Source: Candidatus Bathyarchaeia archaeon (lineage in GTDB: Archaea > Thermoproteota > Bathyarchaeia > TCS64). Taken from it: a stretch of 64,000 nt of DNA. Below the pieces are notes generated by a model that worked only from the letters and a program-made list of their open reading frames with translations, had not been told where the DNA came from and did not search any database. Position 1 is the stretch's first letter; every line of letters starts with the position of its first letter. The DNA lies in assembly GCA_050014495.1 (NCBI GenBank), contig JBEKDF010000009.1, forward strand, positions 14,229-78,228, read 5' to 3'. The position numbers were made by a program, and so were the translations under genes. Positions 2,291 to 11,081 of the stretch are shown in pieces.

Positions 2291-2506
2291 ATGGACGAAC
2301 AAACAGAGTTAGAATCCATCGTTATGGCTACTCGAGTAACTCCCGGAGATTATGAGCTTCTCAAGAAGGTTTGTGTTGCTCGGGGTGAGAACTTCAGCAC
2401 TTTTTTAAGGAGATCTCTAAGAGGTGAGCTCGCCAGGCTTTCATATTATTCTCCCGAGGTCAAGAAGGCCCTCGGCGTCAAGATTGAAGAAATTGGAGGT
2501 GTCTAA
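2291..2506 (+). CDS. ribbon-helix-helix (CopG/Arc/MetJ-like) DNA-binding protein
   Basis: 71 aa. VMATRVTPGDYELLKKVCVARGENFSTFLRRSL fits the beta-strand/helix/helix RHH pattern. It is the first gene of the element operon. Confidence 0.5.
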   Translation: MDEQTELESIVMATRVTPGDYELLKKVCVARGENFSTFLRRSLRGELARLSYYSPEVKKALGVKIEEIGGV

Positions 2507-2508
2507 GA

Positions 2509-2652
2509 GTGAAAGCCGACTGCCCGAACTGTAGACTGAGGGCCGTCGAACCCTCGAAGAGTTGGAAGATGACCGGGAAAGGCGGGATCGTACTCTCGAC
2601 ACATCAATTCCGATGTCCAACATGCGGCTTCAAGTGGCGGTCCTACTCATGA
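2509..2652 (+). CDS. small zinc-ribbon protein (47 aa, not in ORF track)
   Basis: GTG start. Translation KADCPNCRLRAVEPSKSWKMTGKGGIVLSTHQFRCPTCGFKWRSYS carries CPxC...CPxC. Its stop overlaps the ATG at 2649 (ATGA). Confidence 0.4.
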   Translation: MKADCPNCRLRAVEPSKSWKMTGKGGIVLSTHQFRCPTCGFKWRSYS

Positions 2653-3500
2653 AGCAGGTCAGAAAAGGTGCAGTAATCAGGTCCGCCAACCTGGTCAACT
2701 CGTTCACCGACTCATACGCTGGTAAGAGCCCTTCTTCGACACAACAAGCCAGAATAGTGGCCTCCGGTTTCACTTATTATTATGGCCATGATCCATCAAA
2801 GTGGATTCAGGACGATATTTACGGTTACCTCAAGAGAAACGAGGGGCTGAGTCGAAGCACTCAGTATTGCTACTCGGTGATCCTTAGAGCCCTTCTCAGG
2901 TTCTGCCACAGAGAAGACCTAGCTAAACTGGTAAAACCGCCTAGAAGGATCAGCGCCGGCAAGAAATACCCCACCGATGATCAAGTGGACAAGCTTTTCA
3001 ATGTGGCCGAGACGCTCTTGGAGAAATGCGTAGTCCAGGGCCTCTCACACACGGGCGTGAGAGTCGGTGAGCTCGTCCATCTCGAGGTGGATGACTTTGA
3101 TTTCGAAAAACGTCAGATAAGTATCTGCGCGAAGAATGGATGGATCCCCAAGGAGTATAAGGAGAGGAACGTGCCCGTCGACACCAAGACCGCTTCAATG
3201 GTGAAGGAGCACATAGGCGATAGAACGACAGGCAAAATCTTCCCCTACTCAGAGACTTGGATACGTAGGCTCATCAACGATTTATCTGAGAGGGCTGGAT
3301 TAAGCGAGCTCCATATCACCCCACACTCGTTACGACATGGCTACGCTGTCCACGCATTGAAACACGGTATGGATCTCCGTAGCCTTCAGAAGATCCTCGG
3401 GCACGCCGATCTGGCCACGACAGCTACTTATCTCCAGCTGACTGACCGAGACGTCGCCGAAGCATACGACAAGGTCTTCGAGAAGGGAGCCGAGGCATGA
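2649..3500 (+). CDS. tyrosine recombinase/integrase, XerC/D-like
   Basis: Catalytic C-terminus GVRVGELVHL...HITPHSLRHGYAVHALKHGMDLRSLQKILGHADLATTATYLQL (R, HxxR, H, Y). The start is placed at the ATG with the ATGA overlap rather than the track start 2562, which would overlap the zinc-ribbon ORF. Confidence 0.85.
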   Translation: MKQVRKGAVIRSANLVNSFTDSYAGKSPSSTQQARIVASGFTYYYGHDPSKWIQDDIYGYLKRNEGLSRSTQYCYSVILRALLRFCHREDLAKLVKPPRRISAGKKYPTDDQVDKLFNVAETLLEKCVVQGLSHTGVRVGELVHLEVDDFDFEKRQISICAKNGWIPKEYKERNVPVDTKTASMVKEHIGDRTTGKIFPYSETWIRRLINDLSERAGLSELHITPHSLRHGYAVHALKHGMDLRSLQKILGHADLATTATYLQLTDRDVAEAYDKVFEKGAEA

Positions 3501-3664
3501 TCTGCCCGAACTGTGACAAGCGGGCTCAGAGATCAGCCTTCTACACAGGAAACAAGGATCCTGCAGGCGATGAGGTCTACAAATGCTCCCGGTGCGGCCA
3601 CAGCTTCACCGAGAACGACCAAATAGAATGTAGCCGAGTCAAAAAACCGGAGGCATCACAATGA
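3497..3664 (+). CDS. small zinc-ribbon protein (55 aa, not in ORF track)
   Basis: MICPNCDKRAQRSAFYTGNKDPAGDEVYKCSRCGHSFTENDQIECSRVKKPEASQ, with CPxC...CSxC. ATGA overlaps at both ends (3497 and 3661). Confidence 0.45.
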   Translation: MICPNCDKRAQRSAFYTGNKDPAGDEVYKCSRCGHSFTENDQIECSRVKKPEASQ

Positions 3665-4176
3665 GCGACGGCGGTAAGATAGTTACCAAGGCCGATGATG
3701 TCGTGAAGTGGATCCAGGAAGGTGAGACCTGGATTAAGCGAGGCCGAGAGATGTTCAGCGCTGGCTTCACGTCTAAGACCACTGAAGCGGCACCAAGAGC
3801 AGCCGCCTTCGACGAGACGCTTCTAAACGGCGTCGAATGGATGCCAGGCAAGTACGGCGAGTATGTCTTCTCGCAAGACTACAAGGATCTCTATATCGCG
3901 GTCCAGGACGCCGGCGGCAAGGTCGATATGGGCGACTTCACCGTTAGCATCGGCAAAAACGAGGACTACATCAACAAGAACCCGAAGAAACGAGCCGACC
4001 CAGCCCCAGCGCCCACGCAGGGCGGCGGCTACCAGGGCCAGATGAAGGACCCCGAGGGGGCTCCCACCCAGGCGCAGCTCAGCTTCCTCGGGAAGCTGGG
4101 AGTCGCCGGCTTCAGCGGCACCAAGAAGCAGGCCAGCGACCTCATCGAAGAAAAGCTGAGTGAGAAGAGAAAATGA
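3661..4176 (+). CDS. hypothetical protein
   Basis: 171-aa ORF with a Pro/Gly/Gln-rich linker followed by C-terminal AQLSFLGKLGV...TKKQASDLIEEKL. Translationally coupled on both sides. Confidence 0.5.
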   Translation: MSDGGKIVTKADDVVKWIQEGETWIKRGREMFSAGFTSKTTEAAPRAAAFDETLLNGVEWMPGKYGEYVFSQDYKDLYIAVQDAGGKVDMGDFTVSIGKNEDYINKNPKKRADPAPAPTQGGGYQGQMKDPEGAPTQAQLSFLGKLGVAGFSGTKKQASDLIEEKLSEKRK

Positions 4177-4721
4177 AAACCGTCCTCGTCACCAACAAGG
4201 AGTTCGAGACCATCCCAGGCTATACTACCGGGGTCGATGTCGCCACCTGGAAGGGCAAGATAGACACCATACTCTACCGACTCAAGGACAACCCTAAGGT
4301 CCAGGTGGTCCGCAAGGCCTGGCTCACCGAGGACGACTCCGAGATGCTCCTCCTCGAGCTCAAGGTCATCGTCGGCAGAAGCAACGTCCAGCGCCACCTC
4401 AGCTTCAAGCTTGAGCCCGTCATGATCCAGCGCGAGGTCCTCGACAAGCACCGGAACAGGCACCTAGTCACCGAGGATAAGACCAGCTGGAGGCTCTTCT
4501 ACGAGCTCCTCAGCCAGAAGCTCGCAGCAGCCCGCCTAGGCCTCACTGAGATCCAGTACGAATTCATGCCCTACATCAGCATGAGCCTACCCGGAGGCGG
4601 CCAGGGCACCCTTGCCGATATCCTTGACATCACCCTCGAGGCCGACAGGCTCAGCAGCCTAGGCCAGATCGAGGACAAGCGCGAACGCAGGGTAGTAGAC
4701 GCGGAGGTGATGATCAAATGA
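4173..4721 (+). CDS. hypothetical protein
   Basis: 182-aa ORF with ATGA overlaps at both ends and no recognisable motif. Confidence 0.5.
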   Translation: MKTVLVTNKEFETIPGYTTGVDVATWKGKIDTILYRLKDNPKVQVVRKAWLTEDDSEMLLLELKVIVGRSNVQRHLSFKLEPVMIQREVLDKHRNRHLVTEDKTSWRLFYELLSQKLAAARLGLTEIQYEFMPYISMSLPGGGQGTLADILDITLEADRLSSLGQIEDKRERRVVDAEVMIK

Positions 4722-4933
4722 AGATGATCACGCATCCCAAGCCTGATCTGGTGCTCGAGATGACCGCCGAGGAGGCCACGGCCTTCATTGACGATAGTAA
4801 GGGTCTCGTGGTTAGGCAGGCGGCGAAGAACGGCGCGGCCATAACATGGCTACTGACTCAGGGCCACTGGATCATGATAAACCCGCCGAGTAAAGAGGAG
4901 GAACAATCACGTCACGGACAAGAGGATCCTTAG
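4718..4933 (+). CDS. hypothetical protein
   Basis: 71-aa ORF with an ATGA overlap to the upstream gene. Confidence 0.4.
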   Translation: MKMITHPKPDLVLEMTAEEATAFIDDSKGLVVRQAAKNGAAITWLLTQGHWIMINPPSKEEEQSRHGQEDP

Positions 4934-5132
4934 AAGTCTTCAGCTCCGGCTACGCCAGGGCCCAGATCAAGATTACGGCAGACAGAGAGAAGTCCGTAGC
5001 CATCGTCCGCGAGATGATCCTCAGCCGACTAACCGTCAACTATAGTGTAAGTCCGATCAAGGAGAGTCAGCCGCCTGGGCCACGAGGCTTTCACTGCTTT
5101 ATCAATCTTGAGCTGCCGGAGGCCTCACGGCC

Positions 5133-7049
5133 ATGACTGGCGAAGAAAAAAACATTTCATTTCTTACTCCCACCCCCGGCGCATATAGTTTAGAGGAGGC
5201 CAAGCAGCGAGGCTTAGCCTGGAAGGAAGCCCAGAAGCGGGCCACGGAGCTCATGGACCTAGACTTCGTGAAGCGGGTTATCAGTGAGACCGTTAAGCAC
5301 GACGAGGAGGCGAAGCTGATCACCTTCTTCGCTATGGTCCTGAACTACACCTATGAGGACCAGCAAGGGATAATATTCAGCGCCCCTAGCTCCACGGGTA
5401 AAAGCTGGATAGCACTTGAGATAGCCAAATTCTTCCCAAAGGAGGACGTTGACAGCAAGGGCTACACCTCACGCCGAGCCTTCTTCCATATGAATCAGGA
5501 CCTACAGACTGCAGACGGAAAACCCCTCGAGAAAAGGGCCGACTACCTTAGGCAGAAAATGGAGGGTTGGGAGGGCTCAAACCCCAAGCCCCACGCCCCC
5601 GACACAAGCGACAAGACACCCGAGGCTGTCAGACTCAGGAAAGTCGCCTCAGACTGGAAGGAAAAGCGCAAAGAGGAGTACAGGAAACATCGAGACACCT
5701 ACGACGCCCTAGATAAGGTCTACATCGTCGACCTCGCCCAGAGGATCTTAATATGGAAGGACATGCCCGACGACGGGGTCCTTCAACCCCTACGCAGCCT
5801 CATGAGCCATGACGAGAAGGAGCTAATCGCGGATATTACGGATAAGTCACAGTCGGGCTCAAACCTCACGAAGAGGGTTAAGCTCCTAGGATACCCCACC
5901 GTGATCTTCTGTCAAGCAGGCTTCAGCCCCGACGATCAGGAGCGCACACGCAACTTTATTGTAAGCCCGGACATGGATCAGGAGAAGCTCAGCGACAGCC
6001 TAGGCCTCCAAGCCGAGACCCTCAGAAACAGGCCCGGTTTCCAGCAGAGACTCGATACACAGATAGAGCGAATGGCGCTTAAGGCGAGAATCGAGGCAAT
6101 CAAGGCCGAGAATATTCAGCAAATAATGATAGAGGAGTCTGACATAAACAACGCCCTCAAATGGTATAAACGGGGCAAAGATGGCAGACCCCGCGACCTC
6201 ACCCCCAGAGACCAGCGGGACTGGCCTCGCCTAATCGCCATGGCGAAGGGCCACGCCCTCTTCAACTTATTTCAGAGGAAACGGACCCCCGAAGGCTACG
6301 TTATCGCTACGACCGAGGACCTCGAGGTCGCGAAGACTATTCTCGGCAGGATCGTGGAAGCGAACCGCCTCGGGATGCCTCCATACGTCTATGATTGGTG
6401 GGCTGAGGACCTGAGTAAAACATTCGAGGCCCAGCCCTACGGATTAACCAAAAACGAGTTTAACGCCAGCTACTTCGGCAGATTCAAGACTAGACTCGGC
6501 GACAAGGCACGCAAGAACTTGATCAAGTCCCTCGAGGAGACGGGCCTGATTGAGGAGCGCACCGACCCCGACGACAAGAGGACCACCAAACTATATGCAA
6601 CGGGGGTAGGAGTAAGAAATGAAATAAATATTTCTCAGGAGAGCCCAAAACTCCAGGATTTTATTGGTAAGTCAGGTACACTCTTACAGGAAGATACGCC
6701 AGCGTCGCCCGGACTGAAGCCAGAGGAGAAGATAGAGAGGGCTCCGGAGCTCTCCGGGGGTCCCTCGCCTGAAAAGGATGGGCTAAAGGAACAGCCACCC
6801 GAGCCAGAGGGTCCCGAGGAAGTCGTCCCCGTCACCGTTGAGGCCGAGGACCCTAAGCCCCGCGTCACCCTTGAGGAGAGGTTTAGGCAGATTACGAAGA
6901 TCTTCGAGGAATCCCACAACCAGGCCAGCACCGACTACATCGCGTCGAGGCTCGGTGTCACCTCAGAGGAGATGGAGAAGCTACTGAGGGCTATGACGCC
7001 TCATGTCTTCACGGTCCCAGGCTCGGACCTATGGAGGTTCAGCCCGTGA
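5133..7049 (+). CDS. P-loop NTPase, putative replicative (SF3-like) helicase with C-terminal wHTH-like domain
   Basis: 638 aa. Walker A-like FSAPSSTGKSW and a candidate Walker B VYIVDLAQRILIWKDMPDDG. An acidic/Pro-rich linker (PEPEGPEEVVP) precedes a C-terminal helical domain. It is the largest gene of the element. Confidence 0.6.
   Translation: MTGEEKNISFLTPTPGAYSLEEAKQRGLAWKEAQKRATELMDLDFVKRVISETVKHDEEAKLITFFAMVLNYTYEDQQGIIFSAPSSTGKSWIALEIAKFFPKEDVDSKGYTSRRAFFHMNQDLQTADGKPLEKRADYLRQKMEGWEGSNPKPHAPDTSDKTPEAVRLRKVASDWKEKRKEEYRKHRDTYDALDKVYIVDLAQRILIWKDMPDDGVLQPLRSLMSHDEKELIADITDKSQSGSNLTKRVKLLGYPTVIFCQAGFSPDDQERTRNFIVSPDMDQEKLSDSLGLQAETLRNRPGFQQRLDTQIERMALKARIEAIKAENIQQIMIEESDINNALKWYKRGKDGRPRDLTPRDQRDWPRLIAMAKGHALFNLFQRKRTPEGYVIATTEDLEVAKTILGRIVEANRLGMPPYVYDWWAEDLSKTFEAQPYGLTKNEFNASYFGRFKTRLGDKARKNLIKSLEETGLIEERTDPDDKRTTKLYATGVGVRNEINISQESPKLQDFIGKSGTLLQEDTPASPGLKPEEKIERAPELSGGPSPEKDGLKEQPPEPEGPEEVVPVTVEAEDPKPRVTLEERFRQITKIFEESHNQASTDYIASRLGVTSEEMEKLLRAMTPHVFTVPGSDLWRFSP
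5154..5191. repeat. left arm of a 38-bp inverted repeat inside the NTPase gene
   Basis: ATTTCATTTCTTACTCCCACCCCCGGCGCATATAGTTT matches the reverse complement of 6588-6625 at 35/38 positions. Confidence 0.9.
6588..6625. repeat. right arm of a 38-bp inverted repeat inside the NTPase gene
   Basis: AAACTATATGCAACGGGGGTAGGAGTAAGAAATGAAAT. Its reverse complement differs from 5154-5191 at only 3 positions. Confidence 0.9.
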
Positions 7050-7228
7050 CTCAGGTTAATTGCTTCATGGTGGATTGTCGGCACCGATTCAGGGAAGTAT
7101 GCCAGAAGCCCGCGGTCGAGGTGGATAAGTCGGGGCGCTGCGTCAGCTTCGACCGCATACCGGGCTACCTCATGGGGCATGGGTACGACGCCAGATTCAA
7201 GAAGTCGGAGGGAGGAACCGCGCCGTGA
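7046..7228 (+). CDS. small Cys-rich protein, DUF1540-like
   Basis: VNCFMVDCRHRFREVCQKPAVEVDKSGRCVSF has C-x4-C-x7-C-x12-C spacing resembling DUF1540. GTG start with a GTGA overlap; the track alternative is ATG at 7031. Confidence 0.35.
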   Translation: MTQVNCFMVDCRHRFREVCQKPAVEVDKSGRCVSFDRIPGYLMGHGYDARFKKSEGGTAP

Positions 7229-7416
7229 CTGAAAGGCTGTTCAGGTTCTTGGTTGAGAGGTCCATATGGAAGCGTGGCCACGTCCTGGCCCTGAAAACTG
7301 AGTGGAGAAAGATCTATTGCTCAGATATCGAGTCGACCAAGCACTACGCTGAGGAACTGAGGACATACCACGGCTTCAGGATCCTAAGCGAGGTCATGGA
7401 GGCGTCCGAGAAATGA
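7225..7416 (+). CDS. hypothetical protein
   Basis: 63-aa ORF with a GTGA overlap upstream and an ATGA overlap downstream. Confidence 0.35.
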   Translation: MTERLFRFLVERSIWKRGHVLALKTEWRKIYCSDIESTKHYAEELRTYHGFRILSEVMEASEK

Positions 7417-7709
7417 GCACCATCCGCGTCGGAAAATGGGACGTCCCCGCCGACCTCTTCAACGATTACATCCGCTTTTCGATAATGGCGAATACCTACC
7501 TCGACCCCGAGGCCGAGATCCCGACTCACTCGGATTATGAGCGGGCGCTGAGGTGGAAACTATGCGTCCAAGAAGTGATGAGGGTCCACCGGGCGATATG
7601 CGCCGCGATCGGGGTGCCTTACTCAGAGAACACCGACGACGAGTTTTACATGGCTTTCCACCGAGAGGTCAATAAACAAACTAAGCTCAAGGGAGGCACT
7701 GCATATTGA
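7413..7709 (+). CDS. hypothetical protein
   Basis: 98-aa ORF, translationally coupled on both sides. Confidence 0.4.
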   Translation: MSTIRVGKWDVPADLFNDYIRFSIMANTYLDPEAEIPTHSDYERALRWKLCVQEVMRVHRAICAAIGVPYSENTDDEFYMAFHREVNKQTKLKGGTAY

Positions 7710-8443
7710 GCCTCGTCGATGAGCACCTCGCCCAACGCGAGGAGAACCGCAGAACCCGAGTCCCCGGCGTCGTCTACGTCACCGATATCGTCAAGCCCTG
7801 CCAGCGCGGCGCCTACTACACCGCCATACTCAACAAGGCCGCCTCCCCCGAATCCCTCCGCATCTTCGAGGCCGGAAACCTAATCGAGGACTGGTGGATC
7901 AACGCCGTCCTCAGTGGCCGCAAGGACCTCCATGTAGTCGCCACCCAGCTCCCGGCCCGTTACGTTGATGAGGCCGGCGCCTTCGAGATCCACGGCCGAG
8001 TCGACGCCCTAATCCAGCATGGCGACCGAGCCCTCGTGGTCCACGAGGTCAAAAGCCAGAGAACCGCTTCCTGGCTCCGCGAACCGAAGCCAGAGCATGT
8101 TGAGCAGCTCCAGTTCTACCTCGCCGCCCTCGGCCTCGACTGGGGCCAAGTCGACTACCTCGACAAGACCATCCTCCTCCAGGGCCGCGACGTGAAGGCC
8201 CGACCAGGCAAAGGCGGAACCGTCGACAAGAGCTTCCCCGTCCAGCGCGATACACGGGTCTTCGCGGAGCTCGTCCGCCGCGGCCGCCTCCTCGCCGAGG
8301 CCATCAGGGCCGGGAAACCACCCGCGAAGGCTGAGTGCTGGATGTGTCAAGGATATTGTGACTACGCGGCTGAATGCCGCGCCGAGGATGGTGAAGGGCC
8401 GCTAAATGCGGGACTCAACGTCGTCGAGGAGACATCGCCTTGA
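7706..8443 (+). CDS. Cas4/RecB-like PD-(D/E)xK nuclease with Cys cluster
   Basis: N-terminal Cys (VTDIVKPCQRGAYY), a nuclease core (HGRVDAL...VHEVKS...QLQFY) and a C-terminal ECWMCQGYCDYAAEC. This is the Cas4-type one-plus-three cysteine arrangement. Confidence 0.7.
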   Translation: MSLVDEHLAQREENRRTRVPGVVYVTDIVKPCQRGAYYTAILNKAASPESLRIFEAGNLIEDWWINAVLSGRKDLHVVATQLPARYVDEAGAFEIHGRVDALIQHGDRALVVHEVKSQRTASWLREPKPEHVEQLQFYLAALGLDWGQVDYLDKTILLQGRDVKARPGKGGTVDKSFPVQRDTRVFAELVRRGRLLAEAIRAGKPPAKAECWMCQGYCDYAAECRAEDGEGPLNAGLNVVEETSP

Positions 8444-8586
8444 CGAAGAAGAACCGCCGCGCGCGCGTCCCCAGACCACTACCTCCGATCATCAAGCCGG
8501 GCTGCCCGAAGTGCGCCGAGAACAAGGCTGCGGGCCTCACTCACTGCCTCAGGTGCGGCGCAGACCTCAAAAGGTGGATGCCATGA
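8440..8586 (+). CDS. small zinc-ribbon protein (48 aa, not in ORF track)
   Basis: TTG start in a TTGA overlap. Translation TKKNRRARVPRPLPPIIKPGCPKCAENKAAGLTHCLRCGADLKRWMP carries CPxC...CLxC. The stop sits in an ATGA overlap with the next gene. Confidence 0.35.
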   Translation: MTKKNRRARVPRPLPPIIKPGCPKCAENKAAGLTHCLRCGADLKRWMP

Positions 8587-8774
8587 AAATCATCGATGTC
8601 ATCGTGCCCGAGATCGAGGGTCAACTCGCTAAAGAGCTGCACAAATCACCAACGATGATCCGATTCTACGCCTGTAGAATGACCCTTGAACTTGAACTTG
8701 GTCGGCAGATGACACCTGAGGAGCAACACGAACTCGCAAAATATGTCTATGAGATCCACAGGAGGGCCCGCTGA
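8583..8774 (+). CDS. hypothetical protein
   Basis: 63 aa from the ATG at 8583 (MKIIDVIVPEIEG...). This is preferred over the 122-aa track ORF 8406-8774, whose N-terminal part is Arg/Pro-rich and overlaps two better ORFs. Confidence 0.35.
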   Translation: MKIIDVIVPEIEGQLAKELHKSPTMIRFYACRMTLELELGRQMTPEEQHELAKYVYEIHRRAR

Positions 8775-8823
8775 TGCCTCAGATCCTTGACGACCTAGAC
8801 GAGTTGGCGCCGCGGAGGTGTGA

Positions 8824-9081
8824 TTGAAGTCCTTGCAGGCCTACTCCCCTAAGCTGGTTCGAGTCCGATACATGGATCACGTTCTATTCAGATATGTTGA
8901 TCCACGGACAGTGGGGCCAGTTCTGAGGGAGGCGGTGGGTTGGATAATCGCCCAGGACGATGAGGCTGTGACCATCCTCTTCGACAGGGCCCTGGAGCTC
9001 CAGGAGCGTGAGAAGCCTGATCTGGCCTCAGGGCTCAGGATCCTGAGGAGCTGCATAAAGGAGATCGAAGAAATTGGTTGA
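8824..9081 (+). CDS. hypothetical protein
   Basis: 85-aa ORF with a TTG start, the last gene of the GC-rich same-strand block. Confidence 0.35.
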   Translation: MKSLQAYSPKLVRVRYMDHVLFRYVDPRTVGPVLREAVGWIIAQDDEAVTILFDRALELQEREKPDLASGLRILRSCIKEIEEIG

Positions 9082-9276
9082 TCAATCTTCTTTTCTAAAA
9101 GACACACTAGACTTTTCGACATCGACAGAGGCCGTCAATTCTTCCTGTCCTTCAATTTTTAGGATTTTTACAGCTGCGCTTGGAATAGTCACTAAGAAAC
9201 TGCCCCTTTGTCGTTTCTGTACTTTGACTTTTCCCACGTCTATTTCGACCATATTCGCTACCGCTTTATCTACCAC
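9082..9276 (-). CDS. AbrB/SpoVT/MazE-type DNA-binding protein
   Basis: 64 aa. KVQKRQRGSFLVTIPSAAVKILKIEGQEEL fits the swapped-hairpin AbrB fold pattern. It lies in a short AT-rich segment. Confidence 0.55.
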   Translation of the reverse strand: MVDKAVANMVEIDVGKVKVQKRQRGSFLVTIPSAAVKILKIEGQEELTASVDVEKSSVSFRKED

Positions 9277-9346
9277 AGAGTTAAATATAAGCCTTCATAA
9301 ATTATGTGGTAGATATGGCGGTAGAATCAACGGTTGGTAATGATGT

Positions 9347-9652
9347 ATGATGAAACTCCTGTTAGATGAGAACTGCTCGAACTTGGGACCAGCCCTCAAG
9401 GAGTTGGGTTGGAGCGTCTACACCGTTCCTGAGGTGATAGACCGGCCAGCTGGCTGTAAGAGCGTTACGGATGACAGGATCCTGGAGTTCGCTAAAGCCG
9501 AGAAGTACGTGATCATCACGAAGGACCAGGGACTCAAGGACCAATGCCAGAATGCTGAAGTCCCCTATGTCGGTTTAGGAGGTGTCGAGGAGGAGGCCGG
9601 TATCGTCGACCGGAAACTCAGGAAGGTAGTAGCCTGGAAGAGGTACCTCTAG
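9347..9652 (+). CDS. DUF5615-family (PIN-like/Mut7-C-like) protein
   Basis: MKLLLDENCSNLGPALKELGWSVYTV...DDRILEFAKAEKYVIITKDQG matches the typical DUF5615 N-terminal LLDEN motif and the central xxTxDxD/G motif. Confidence 0.6.
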   Translation: MMKLLLDENCSNLGPALKELGWSVYTVPEVIDRPAGCKSVTDDRILEFAKAEKYVIITKDQGLKDQCQNAEVPYVGLGGVEEEAGIVDRKLRKVVAWKRYL

Positions 9653-9653
9653 A

Positions 9654-11039
9654 ATGGCCGAGTCCAAACAATTCAAAGAGATCACACTTACCCACAGCTC
9701 CCGAGGCAGGAAGCTGAGTAGGCCAATCACATTCAGGATCATAATTGCTAGGAGCCCTGGAGAAAAGGCTGTCCAGGACTACGTGATCGAGTCTTTATCC
9801 ATAAAAATGCCGAGTCTGATCCCCTTCGTCTTCGAGAATAGCACCGTGGTGAATCGAGCCAAGGATCTTAAATTCCACTACATTGGGAGCCCCGCGACAC
9901 TCTACCAGGACGTATATGGAGTCTATCGATTCAGTAAGTGGATAGGCCAGTCACCTGATGAGCTCTTCAAGGGATGCCTGAACAGGAAAGGTAAGCCTGA
10001 TCCATCTAGACTAGACGAGCTCAAGAGACGTCTCGACGACTTCATGTGTGATCTCAAGGCGGGAAATACCGCTCCGAGTACCGTGGCCAACTACGTGAAG
10101 GGAGTAAAAGGCCTCTTCAAGTCGAACGGTGTCCCTCTTGAATTACCTTTCAGGATCAGTCGTAAGAAAGCGGAGCCGGATCATTCTCCGACCCCTGAGG
10201 AGCTTCAGCAAGTTCTTGACATCGCTGCTCCAAGAGAGAGGGCGATCGTGAGCTTCCTAGCTCTAACTGGAGTCCGGGAGGGAACCCTTGTGAGACTCAA
10301 GTATCGACACGTTCAGCAAGATCTCGAGGCCAGAGTTTCACCCATCCACATTCACGTTGAGGTCGATATCACAAAGGGCGAGTATGGCGCCTTCGATACC
10401 TTCCTGGCCGGTGAGGGTGTCGAGTACCTGAAGGCCTACCTTCAATCCAGGAGGGCAGGAACAGAGAAGATCCCATCCGAGGAGATCATGCCAGACTCGC
10501 CCCTCTTCAGCTGGGCCTCATGCGGAAGGCCTCTCACAGAGTCAAGGATCCACGCCCTGGTGAGTCGCCTATACCTGAGGGCCGGGATCATCTCAAAGGC
10601 CGATAAAGGTAGAAGGTACAGGGTCAGGCCTCACAGCCTGAGGAAGTACTTCAGGACCCAGCTCGCAGCTCTATCAATCCCCACCGATCACGTTGAGTAC
10701 ATGATGGGCCACGTGATGAGCACCTACAATGACGTTCAGAGCCTGGGTATCGAGAAGCTAAGAAATGAGTACGCCACAGCTGGACTCAGCATCAGGCCGA
10801 GGACCAGAGCCAGTAAGATCGAGATGGTCAAGTCGATGCTTGAGTCCATAGGGGTGTCACCTGAGGAGATGAGAGCAGCTCTAGTTAAGCCAAACAGGAC
10901 CGTGATCGGCCTGGAGGATGGAGAGGCAGTTCAGCTTAAGGCTCTCCAGGGTGTCATGAAGAGAGCTCTCCTTAAGGAACTTGGTATAAATTCATGGCTA
11001 GAGAGTGGTAGCCCGGCGGAGATTCGAACTCCGGTCTAA
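9654..11039 (+). CDS. tyrosine-type integrase whose 3' end overlaps tRNA-Gln
   Basis: 461 aa. Motifs: LALTGVREGTLVRLKY (R), RPHSLRKYFRT (HxxR), YMMGHVMSTYNDV (H, Y). The last 11 codons (GSPAEIRTPV) are antisense to the acceptor/T-arm of the tRNA. Confidence 0.8.
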   Translation: MAESKQFKEITLTHSSRGRKLSRPITFRIIIARSPGEKAVQDYVIESLSIKMPSLIPFVFENSTVVNRAKDLKFHYIGSPATLYQDVYGVYRFSKWIGQSPDELFKGCLNRKGKPDPSRLDELKRRLDDFMCDLKAGNTAPSTVANYVKGVKGLFKSNGVPLELPFRISRKKAEPDHSPTPEELQQVLDIAAPRERAIVSFLALTGVREGTLVRLKYRHVQQDLEARVSPIHIHVEVDITKGEYGAFDTFLAGEGVEYLKAYLQSRRAGTEKIPSEEIMPDSPLFSWASCGRPLTESRIHALVSRLYLRAGIISKADKGRRYRVRPHSLRKYFRTQLAALSIPTDHVEYMMGHVMSTYNDVQSLGIEKLRNEYATAGLSIRPRTRASKIEMVKSMLESIGVSPEEMRAALVKPNRTVIGLEDGEAVQLKALQGVMKRALLKELGINSWLESGSPAEIRTPV

Positions 11040-11081
11040 GGGTCCAAAGCCCTCCATCCTTGTCCACTAGACGACCGGGCT
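11006..11081 (-). tRNA. tRNA-Gln (anticodon UUG), CCA encoded
   Basis: Minus-strand sequence AGCCCGGTCGTCTAGTGGACAAGGATGGAGGGCTTTGGACCCTTAGACCGGAGTTCGAATCTCCGCCGGGCTACCA. It folds with a 7-bp acceptor stem, a T-arm CGGAG/TTCGAAT/CTCCG, and an anticodon stem GAGGG/CCCTT with loop CTTTGGA. A TATA-like TTAATAG lies about 30 nt upstream. Confidence 0.85.

Follow-up and report, generated by a model that had tools for sequence, protein, structure and literature searches.

An inverted repeat within the MCM-like helicase gene of an integrated element of Bathyarchaeia as a candidate pair of replication sites

Introduction

Why should a helicase gene carry, within its own reading frame, two inverted and nearly identical sequences, one on either side of the region coding for the ATPase core? 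This question is raised by a stretch of 64,000 nucleotides from Candidatus Bathyarchaeia archaeon (assembly GCA_050014495.1, contig JBEKDF010000009.1, positions 14,229 to 78,228; the whole stretch is called the window here, and positions are counted from its first letter). In this window a small integrated element carries a gene for an AAA+ helicase resembling the minichromosome maintenance (MCM) proteins. An earlier note, made from the sequence alone, had described a 38-bp inverted repeat in this gene and had offered several readings of it: recombinase targets that define an invertible segment, boxes for an origin or a Rep protein, ends of a domesticated insertion, or arms that pair over a long distance in the mRNA. 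Here, the repeat is analyzed in the window and in related loci, and these readings are weighed together with a role in transcription and with the possibility that the repeat is a relic.

Results

Inverted repeat and helicase gene

Alignment of the left arm (5154-5191, plus strand) with the reverse complement of 6588-6625 was repeated and revealed identity at 35 of 38 positions. A repeat finder extended the arms to 5144-5196 and 6583-6635 (53 nt, 83% identity, spacer of 1386 nt) and placed this repeat at the top of all inverted repeats of the entire window, the second-ranked one being 34 nt long at 74%. Matches with three or fewer mismatches did not occur in any of 100 dinucleotide-preserving shuffles of the window. 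Coordinates and identity as given in the earlier note were thus confirmed, and the repeat is, as claimed there, beyond chance for 64 kb. The description of the arms held as well: open reading frame (ORF) 5133-7049 begins 21 nt before the left arm, both arms are translated in the frame of this ORF (as ISFLTPTPGAYSL and KLYATGVGVRNEI), and short A/T-rich tracts of 10-20 bp are found on the outer side of each arm. The number of copies per locus was exactly two; a third copy of the arm or iterons were detected neither in the window nor in any related locus.

The protein encoded by ORF 5133-7049 gave no match in sequence searches against Pfam, PHROG and PDB. Relatives were absent from viral contigs, PLSDB plasmids and GenBank phages, and no annotated relative was found. 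An AlphaFold (AF2) model built from 69 homologues reached a predicted local distance difference test (pLDDT) value of 84.5. Comparison of this model with PDB by Foldseek yielded 25 hits at E ≤ 1e-3, nearly all of them MCM2-7 subunits, which were also the best matches (E 2e-7 to 1e-4), and in addition the AAA+ motor BchI; proteins of the MarR family matched the winged helix. By its modelled fold, the protein is an AAA+ helicase that belongs to the MCM / Mg-chelatase clade and carries a winged helix C-terminally. An N-terminal tail is followed in the model by the AAA+ core, whose Walker A motif reads APSSTGKS, and by a winged helix of the MarR type (residues ~437-492); residues 493-573 are predicted to be a disordered linker, and residues 580-636 to be a small winged-helix-like domain at the C-terminus. 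An OB-fold domain, as present at the N-terminus of cellular MCM, is lacking. Among 349 homologues found, some are fused to PrimPol, Toprim/DnaG or DnaB-N domains. Because of these fusions and of the MCM-like fold, the protein is read as the replicative helicase of the mobile element.

In the model, the left-arm peptide belongs to a coil formed by residues 1-19, of which residues 1-11 have a pLDDT below 50. The right-arm peptide begins with strand E485-489; from residue 493 onward the pLDDT again falls below 50, and it stays there up to residue 573 throughout a linker of 80 residues. The right arm is therefore located at the boundary between core and linker, as the earlier note had proposed.

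Recurrence of the repeat and arm types

Related loci were retrieved from Bathyarchaeia genomes among others; 140 of these 160 loci were testable. Each locus was scored by the best complementarity between the region just 5′ of the conserved core and the region just past the winged helix, and mismatched locus pairs provided the background (mean score 8.1, 99th percentile 12). Scores of 12-29 were obtained for 20 of the testable loci, always at the same two positions, and two further loci with the repeat (L161 and L166) were identified by protein look-up. Including the window, the repeat is present at homologous positions in about 23 loci, all of them from Bathyarchaeia-type clades. Homologous NTPase genes, in which the earlier note had suggested to search, thus do carry it, and one of the refuting conditions named there, a lack of the repeat in homologues, turned out the opposite way; in the protein alignment, both arm peptides are conserved.

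A tree of the helicase cores showed that every member of the clade of the window has the repeat, with degraded arms in several close relatives (L001, L004, L163). It is also found in a second, distant Bathyarchaeia group (L030, L034, L047 and L086-88) and in L051 nearby. The repeat is absent from the archaeal lineages that intervene in this tree and from all bacterial homologues; neighbouring archaeal lineages gave background scores only. A search of IMG/VR viral contigs with the arm motif resulted in 0 hits.

Three types of arms were distinguished. Type A comprises the window, L081, L003, L004, L001 and L161; type B arms, which read TTTTTTCTCCACCCCC-N4-GGGGGAATATAG, occur in L005-L017 and L166, and clade 2 arms read ATATTCCCCTCGACCTGCAGGTAAA. 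The types do not cross-match, with a mean score of 17.4 for the own partner as compared to 10.0 across types; arms of types A and B are related, and those of clade 2 are different. The 10-mer GGGGAATATA is shared by type-B arms, where it makes up the inner half (e.g. L008 613-638), and by clade-2 arms, where it makes up the outer half (e.g. L034 2172-2210) and is thus flipped relative to the gene; it may represent an ancestral palindromic site or a coincidence. Types A and B seemed to differ by an indel of one codon that is matched in the two arms, but this difference turned out to be alignment-dependent and is not claimed. Likewise, the wobble-opposite-wobble register seen in the window is true of type A only and not of type B, and it was dropped as a general rule.

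The left arm is not bound to the coding sequence. In clade 2 it is usually non-coding, being located downstream of a small ribbon-helix-helix (RHH) gene and upstream of both the Shine-Dalgarno sequence and the start codon of the helicase gene; in five type-B loci it is found 790-1096 nt inside a PrimPol-helicase fusion. Over all loci its position relative to the start codon varies from -90 to +1096 nt, and the repeat therefore tracks the borders of the helicase core and not the start codon. Furthermore, the helicase gene is the only gene that is always linked to the arms: integrase family FAM3 is found with arm types B and 2, family FAM4 with types A and B, and the small regulator (RHH or AbrB) varies within one arm type.

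Some right arms showed additional features. In those of type B (L006 4659-4698, L009 5328-5362), the codons GAG AAA AAA CAA directly ahead of the linker harbour A AAA AAC, a classic slippery heptamer; a -1 frameshift at this site yielding a core-only protein would be possible. Frameshifted relatives were also encountered (L002, L082 and protein P0007). P0007 has a frame-shifting deletion of 1 nt shortly 5′ of the right arm, and the protein therefore stops at a TAG within this arm (GGGGGTAGGGG).

Conservation at the nucleotide level

A codon alignment of 16 clade-1 loci was analyzed in windows of nine codons for identical codon use at positions where the amino acids are identical. This synonymous identity amounted to 45% overall and to 27-63% in all windows of the gene body. 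At the arms it reached 66-87% for residues 4-22 and 61-89% for residues 482-504, with an amino acid identity of only 20-55% in these regions. Past residue 505 the protein is poorly conserved, yet synonymous identity did not rise; low protein identity as such therefore does not explain the effect at the arms. For clade 2, an independent repetition of the test placed all of the top 6 of 168 windows (0.75-0.91, median 0.55) in the right arm. The freeze of synonymous sites at the arms only, the disordered protein context and the non-coding left arm of clade 2 show that it is the DNA or RNA sequence which is conserved, the arm peptides being its consequence. We infer from this comparison that the repeat is a functional signal conserved beyond the needs of the protein.

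The repeat would be a non-functional relic if it were an old inverted duplication whose copies have stayed alike through gene conversion and through protein constraint acting on the two peptides. Gene conversion between inverted repeats of 40 bp is plausible, and degraded arms as in L001, L004 and L163 would be in line with decay. Nevertheless, synonymous sites are frozen across loci and not merely within them, in two clades; in addition, the arm peptides belong to disordered protein, the left arm persists where it is non-coding, and three arm types that do not cross-match have each been retained. A relic is thus highly improbable.

Covariation between the arms

The earlier note had also suggested to examine whether the arms co-vary in homologues, and they do. 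For 22 loci in register, standard pairs were found in 81.3% of the cells as compared to 60.8 ± 1.2% when partners were shuffled within columns, a value not reached in any of 500 shuffles; the columns compared are positional and not strictly homologous across the three arm types. Sliding the register by 1-3 columns reduced pairing to 41-60%. The covariation score was 0.547 versus 0.198, with changes on both sides in 30 of 36 pairs; rows were built from the best repeat of each locus itself, and such scores are inflated by relatedness.

In type A the partner from the same locus was always the best match. Locus L051 has a block of 4 nt changed from TCCC to GAGT in both arms. Type-B arms match partners from their own and from other loci equally well, with helicases that are only ~50% identical; since the type-B arm sequence is constant across loci, recognition of the sequence and not merely pairing is indicated. 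Mismatches between the arms cluster in their middle (columns 16-21) between two conserved half-sites, as would be expected of a bipartite binding site.

A rival reading is pairing within the mRNA, by which a duplex of ~38-50 bp would close a loop of 1.4 kb; the message, being cyclised, might thereby be protected or translation re-initiation be limited. Both the minimum-free-energy and the centroid fold predicted for the 1.5-kb RNA have the arms paired, complementarity is kept by compensatory changes including the block changed in both arms of L051, and in some homologues (L161), where the gene ends 14 codons past the right arm, the arms are near both ends of the mRNA. A TATA-like box 5′ of ATG 5133 is the probable promoter of the helicase gene as judged by its sequence and position, and it would put the left arm, and hence both arms, on one transcript. 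However, mismatches compatible with G.U pairs are not favoured on the mRNA strand (33 as compared to 47 on the other strand), type-B arms keep their sequence instead of drifting freely with compensation, and the varying distance of the left arm from the start codon (-90 to +1096 nt) leaves no common way of occluding initiation. A bulge-helix-bulge processing motif was rejected, since pairing of the arms gives a plain helix interrupted by small internal loops; a search of Rfam with window positions 4800-7200 at a permissive threshold gave no match. The 5′-3′ cyclisation sequences of flaviviruses and the processing stems flanking archaeal rRNA are comparable in that complementary sequences separated by more than 1 kb can form a large loop and change in a compensatory manner. 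Unlike these, the repeat has no bulge-helix-bulge, G.U is not preferred on its transcribed strand, its sequence itself is conserved, and its position relative to the translation start is variable. Pairing in the mRNA, as proposed in the earlier note, is thus consistent with the predicted fold and not supported by the pattern of substitutions, and we consider it rather unlikely. DNA sites are favoured over RNA pairing because of the half-sites around a variable centre, the presence of exactly two inverted copies and the linkage to the helicase gene only.

The arms could also act in transcription. Each would then consist of a G/C-rich element beside a TATA-like ATATA or TAAAAATT box and would control the helicase dose as a promoter or operator module; the left arm might be a sense internal promoter and the right arm an identical antisense promoter, or both might be operators looped by a repressor. 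An A/T box is present at the inner end of every arm type. In the PrimPol-fused loci L006, L009, L011 and L012, a TATAT box is located 27-30 nt 5′ of a conserved internal ATG, which corresponds to the geometry of archaeal leaderless promoters, and in clade 2 the box lies 36-55 nt 5′ of the Shine-Dalgarno sequence and start codon. Moreover, many related loci have RHH or AbrB regulator genes just 5′ of the helicase gene. In contrast, stand-alone genes including that of the window have the box 63-81 nt from Met41, their ORF clearly begins 5′ of the arm, and helix 20-37 of the helicase is modelled with confidence. The boxes of the arms are unlike the TTTAAA/TTTATA consensus upstream of host genes, the small regulators are exchanged within one arm type, and an arm of 35-50 bp with two half-sites exceeds a module of TFB recognition element (BRE) and TATA box. 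Paired transcription sites are unlikely on these grounds. The internal promoter is retained as a side observation only and not as an explanation, because of the spacing in stand-alone genes and of the confidently modelled helix 20-37. The methionine just before the conserved core (Met41, window 5253-5255) is retained in most homologues, and in the four PrimPol-helicase fusions the distance between box and ATG hints at a helicase-only isoform from an internal start.

Integrated element and neighbouring genes

The helicase gene is part of a small GC-rich island (~2.3-11.0 kb) with two tyrosine integrases. The features of this element are summarized in Table 1.

Table 1. Features of the inverted repeat, the helicase gene and the integrated element (window positions)
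Feature	Position	Strand	Remarks
Left arm	core 5154..5191, extended 5144-5196	+	codes for helicase residues 8-20, unstructured N-terminal tail
Right arm	core 6588..6625, extended 6583-6635	-	codes for residues 486-498: last wing beta-strand of winged helix and first residues of disordered linker
Bracketed segment	5192..6587	+	coding sequence of AAA+ and winged-helix core; ~55% GC (54-55%), without long A/T-rich stretch
MCM-like AAA+ helicase gene, 638 aa	5133..7049	+	ORF; AF2 model; Foldseek
TATA-like box CTTTATCAA	5097..5105	+	28-36 nt 5′ of ATG 5133; likened to TTTAAA/TTTATA boxes upstream of host genes and tRNA-Gln gene
Integrated element carrying helicase gene	2293..11081	.	GC 50-65% vs 33-45% in flanks
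RHH (CopG-like) gene, 71 aa	2293-2508	+	unlisted ORF directly 5′ of integrase 2562-3500
Tyrosine integrase	2562-3500		
Cas4-like PD-(D/E)XK nuclease	7706-8443		
PIN-like gene	9347-9652		
Second tyrosine integrase, 461 aa	9654-11039		3′ end overlaps 3′ part of tRNA-Gln by 34 nt
tRNA-Gln	11006-11081	-	

The overlap of the second integrase gene with the tRNA-Gln gene marks the integration site. Direct repeats matching the tRNA-Gln end as attachment (att) sites were not found to the left at a score of at least 13, and the left border of the element is placed approximately, at ~2.24-2.29 kb, by GC content. A gene for Orc1/Cdc6 was detected neither in the element nor among ten ORFs of the window that were scanned. 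A search between 2.3 and 11 kb for another obvious origin, i.e. an A/T-rich region with repeats, returned only a palindrome at 9258-9324. This inverted repeat (9258-9282 / 9300-9324; 25 nt, 84%, 17-nt spacer) is located between an AbrB-like ORF on the minus strand (9082-9276) and the PIN-like gene and is probably the operator of a toxin-antitoxin system.

One reading of the earlier note was that the arms are recombinase targets and that inversion would act as an off switch. A tyrosine recombinase of the element, or homologous recombination, would flip 5192-6587 and truncate the ORF, leaving a C-terminally shortened core on the other strand. A near-perfect inverted repeat around a defined segment, in an element with two integrases, speaks for such a switch, and occasional recombination between the arms would account for their concerted evolution. 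Inversion in silico resulted in a stub of 58 aa and a core ORF of 510 codons on the opposite strand; the earlier estimate that the ORF would be truncated after about 40 codons was roughly right (the stop follows after 58 codons, 38 past the arm), and the surviving core ORF had been missed. However, none of the 23 assembled loci with the repeat is inverted, five have PrimPol fused upstream, and in all of them the ORF runs 42-411 nt past the right arm. The mismatches between the arms are concentrated at their centre, where crossover regions of recombinases need identity; arms of one type are found together with integrases of unrelated families, so that no cognate recombinase is co-inherited, and the opposite strand of the segment holds no coding alternative. 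The repeat shares with intragenic invertons and shufflons its location inside a coding sequence with recombinase genes nearby; unlike them, it shows no second orientation, its arm centres are heterologous, and neither a coding alternative on the other strand nor a dedicated co-inherited recombinase accompanies it. An invertible switch is thus very unlikely.

Ends of a transposon, an insertion sequence or a miniature inverted-repeat transposable element were considered and rejected. Both arms are crossed by a single ORF in every locus, the arms enclose an MCM-like helicase and no transposase, and target duplication was not found; the sequences flanking the arms are not direct repeats. The idea of an ancient insertion domesticated into the ORF accordingly found no support.

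Outside the element, a minus-strand gene at 1580-2233 adjoins its left edge; this gene is very A/T-rich (33% GC), and its composition is unlike that of the element and of the downstream host genes. Between 27400 and 47600 of the window, several families of diverged direct repeats (44-166 nt, with 61-78% identity) connect clusters of genes at ~27-31, 38-42 and 43-47 kb, which are probably paralogous metabolic gene sets.

Discussion

The question why the helicase gene carries the repeat can be given a tentative answer. What fits best, and what we regard as a serious possibility rather than a probable conclusion, is that the arms are a pair of inverted DNA sites recognised sequence-specifically by a protein, for helicase loading or for control of replication. 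Conserved arms, two inverted copies, variable centres and linkage to the helicase gene all agree with the suggestion of the earlier note that the arms are boxes of an origin or of a Rep protein; its comparison with origin recognition box (ORB) elements failed at the level of sequence. We infer that a protein would read the arms for the purpose of replication, and that this protein would most likely be the MCM-like helicase of the element itself acting via its winged helix; a host factor or loader would be the alternative. Each site would consist of the two conserved half-sites around the variable centre, and the pair would serve initiation or control of element replication; it might, for instance, set two helicase complexes head-to-head, as do inverted initiator sites at archaeal and eukaryotic origins. 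The sites would have been placed where the protein next to the core is unstructured, i.e. in the N-terminal tail and in the linker behind the wing, or, in one clade, in the upstream intergenic spacer. A DNA signal of 35-50 bp would fit there without damage to the protein in a compact element.

This answer may be extended by assuming that the helicase is a self-loading MCM-like replicase independent of an initiator. Its own winged helix would recognise both arms, and the gene would be its own bipartite origin. One arm would be the very DNA that codes for the wing of the winged helix, the inverted pair would orient two hexamers head-to-head, and protein specificity and coding sequence would co-evolve. 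We consider this extension rather unlikely.

In favour of such sites, the recognition helix of the winged helix reads G[DE]K[AS]RKxLI in types A and B, whose arms are related, whereas clade 2 with its different arms has GQKRCQEIL; this correlation with arm type is confounded by phylogeny. Several further points weigh against replication sites. Arms of all three types were compared on both strands with the archaeal ORB consensus (taken from PMC4153887 and PMC1868953; mini-ORB form TTCCAGTGGAAAC ... GGGGT), and local alignment scores of 5-7 remained at the level of shuffled sequences (P 0.2-0.97). The interior between the arms is coding, has a GC content of 54-55% and contains no A/T-rich element for unwinding. 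A spacing of 1.4 kb is far larger than that of known origins with inverted sites. Co-changes in blocks, as in L051 (4 nt), are explained by a binding site no better than by selection for pairing or by gene conversion. Finally, bacterial and many archaeal homologues manage without the repeat.

Helicase loading at inverted initiator sites is quasi-symmetrical at the yeast ARS consensus sequence (ACS) with its B2 element and at the origin palindromes of papilloma- and polyomaviruses, where the sites are tens to a few hundred bp apart. As at ACS/B2, two inverted recognition sites would, as proposed here, set opposite orientations of two hexameric helicases. In contrast to the yeast and viral origins, the sites of the window are ~1.4 kb apart, and binding to them is putative.

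Replication sites in cis to genes of replication proteins are known from archaea. The cdc6/orc1 gene of Thermococcales is located between two ORB clusters, one of them within the coding sequence of dp1, and both are bound by Cdc6 (PMC1904270). Pairs of ORBs occur on both sides of orc1 in Ca. Methanomethylophilus alvus (PMC4153887), and archaeal replicator and initiator co-diversify (PMC4010727). The arms resemble archaeal ORBs, which are repeated sites of 20-36 bp, in their inverted orientation and their location in cis to the gene of a replication protein, and the Thermococcales arrangement in particular, where a gene lies between site clusters and one cluster in coding sequence. They differ from ORBs in several respects: the arms of the window have no similarity to the ORB consensus CTTCCAGTGGAAACGAAAGGGGT; the gene between them codes for an MCM-like helicase and not for Orc1/Cdc6; one site instead of a cluster is present on each side, with no A/T-rich unwinding element between them; and both sites of the window are in frame within the gene which they bracket. 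Literature searches for a described case of such a repeat found none. Sites for replication or its control that are tied in cis to a replication-protein gene are thus already known, and by function the repeat is probably a variant of these; what is unusual is its architecture, with the two sites written in frame into the very gene whose core lies between them.

How replication starts in archaeal plasmids and proviruses that have an MCM-like helicase but no Orc1/Cdc6 is largely unknown, and elements of Bathyarchaeia have no experimental system. Here, comparison alone has defined a short cis element to the base, with two inverted copies, half-sites and synonymous sites frozen in two clades. With the repeat, a whole family of elements gains a concrete candidate replicator that can be tested. 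The gene is also a clean case from nature of a nucleic-acid signal superimposed on two stretches of a single reading frame, and the amino acids of both stretches had to change together for the signal to be kept. Should the sites be read by the helicase itself, origin and helicase would form a minimal module, which would be useful in vectors for uncultured archaea.

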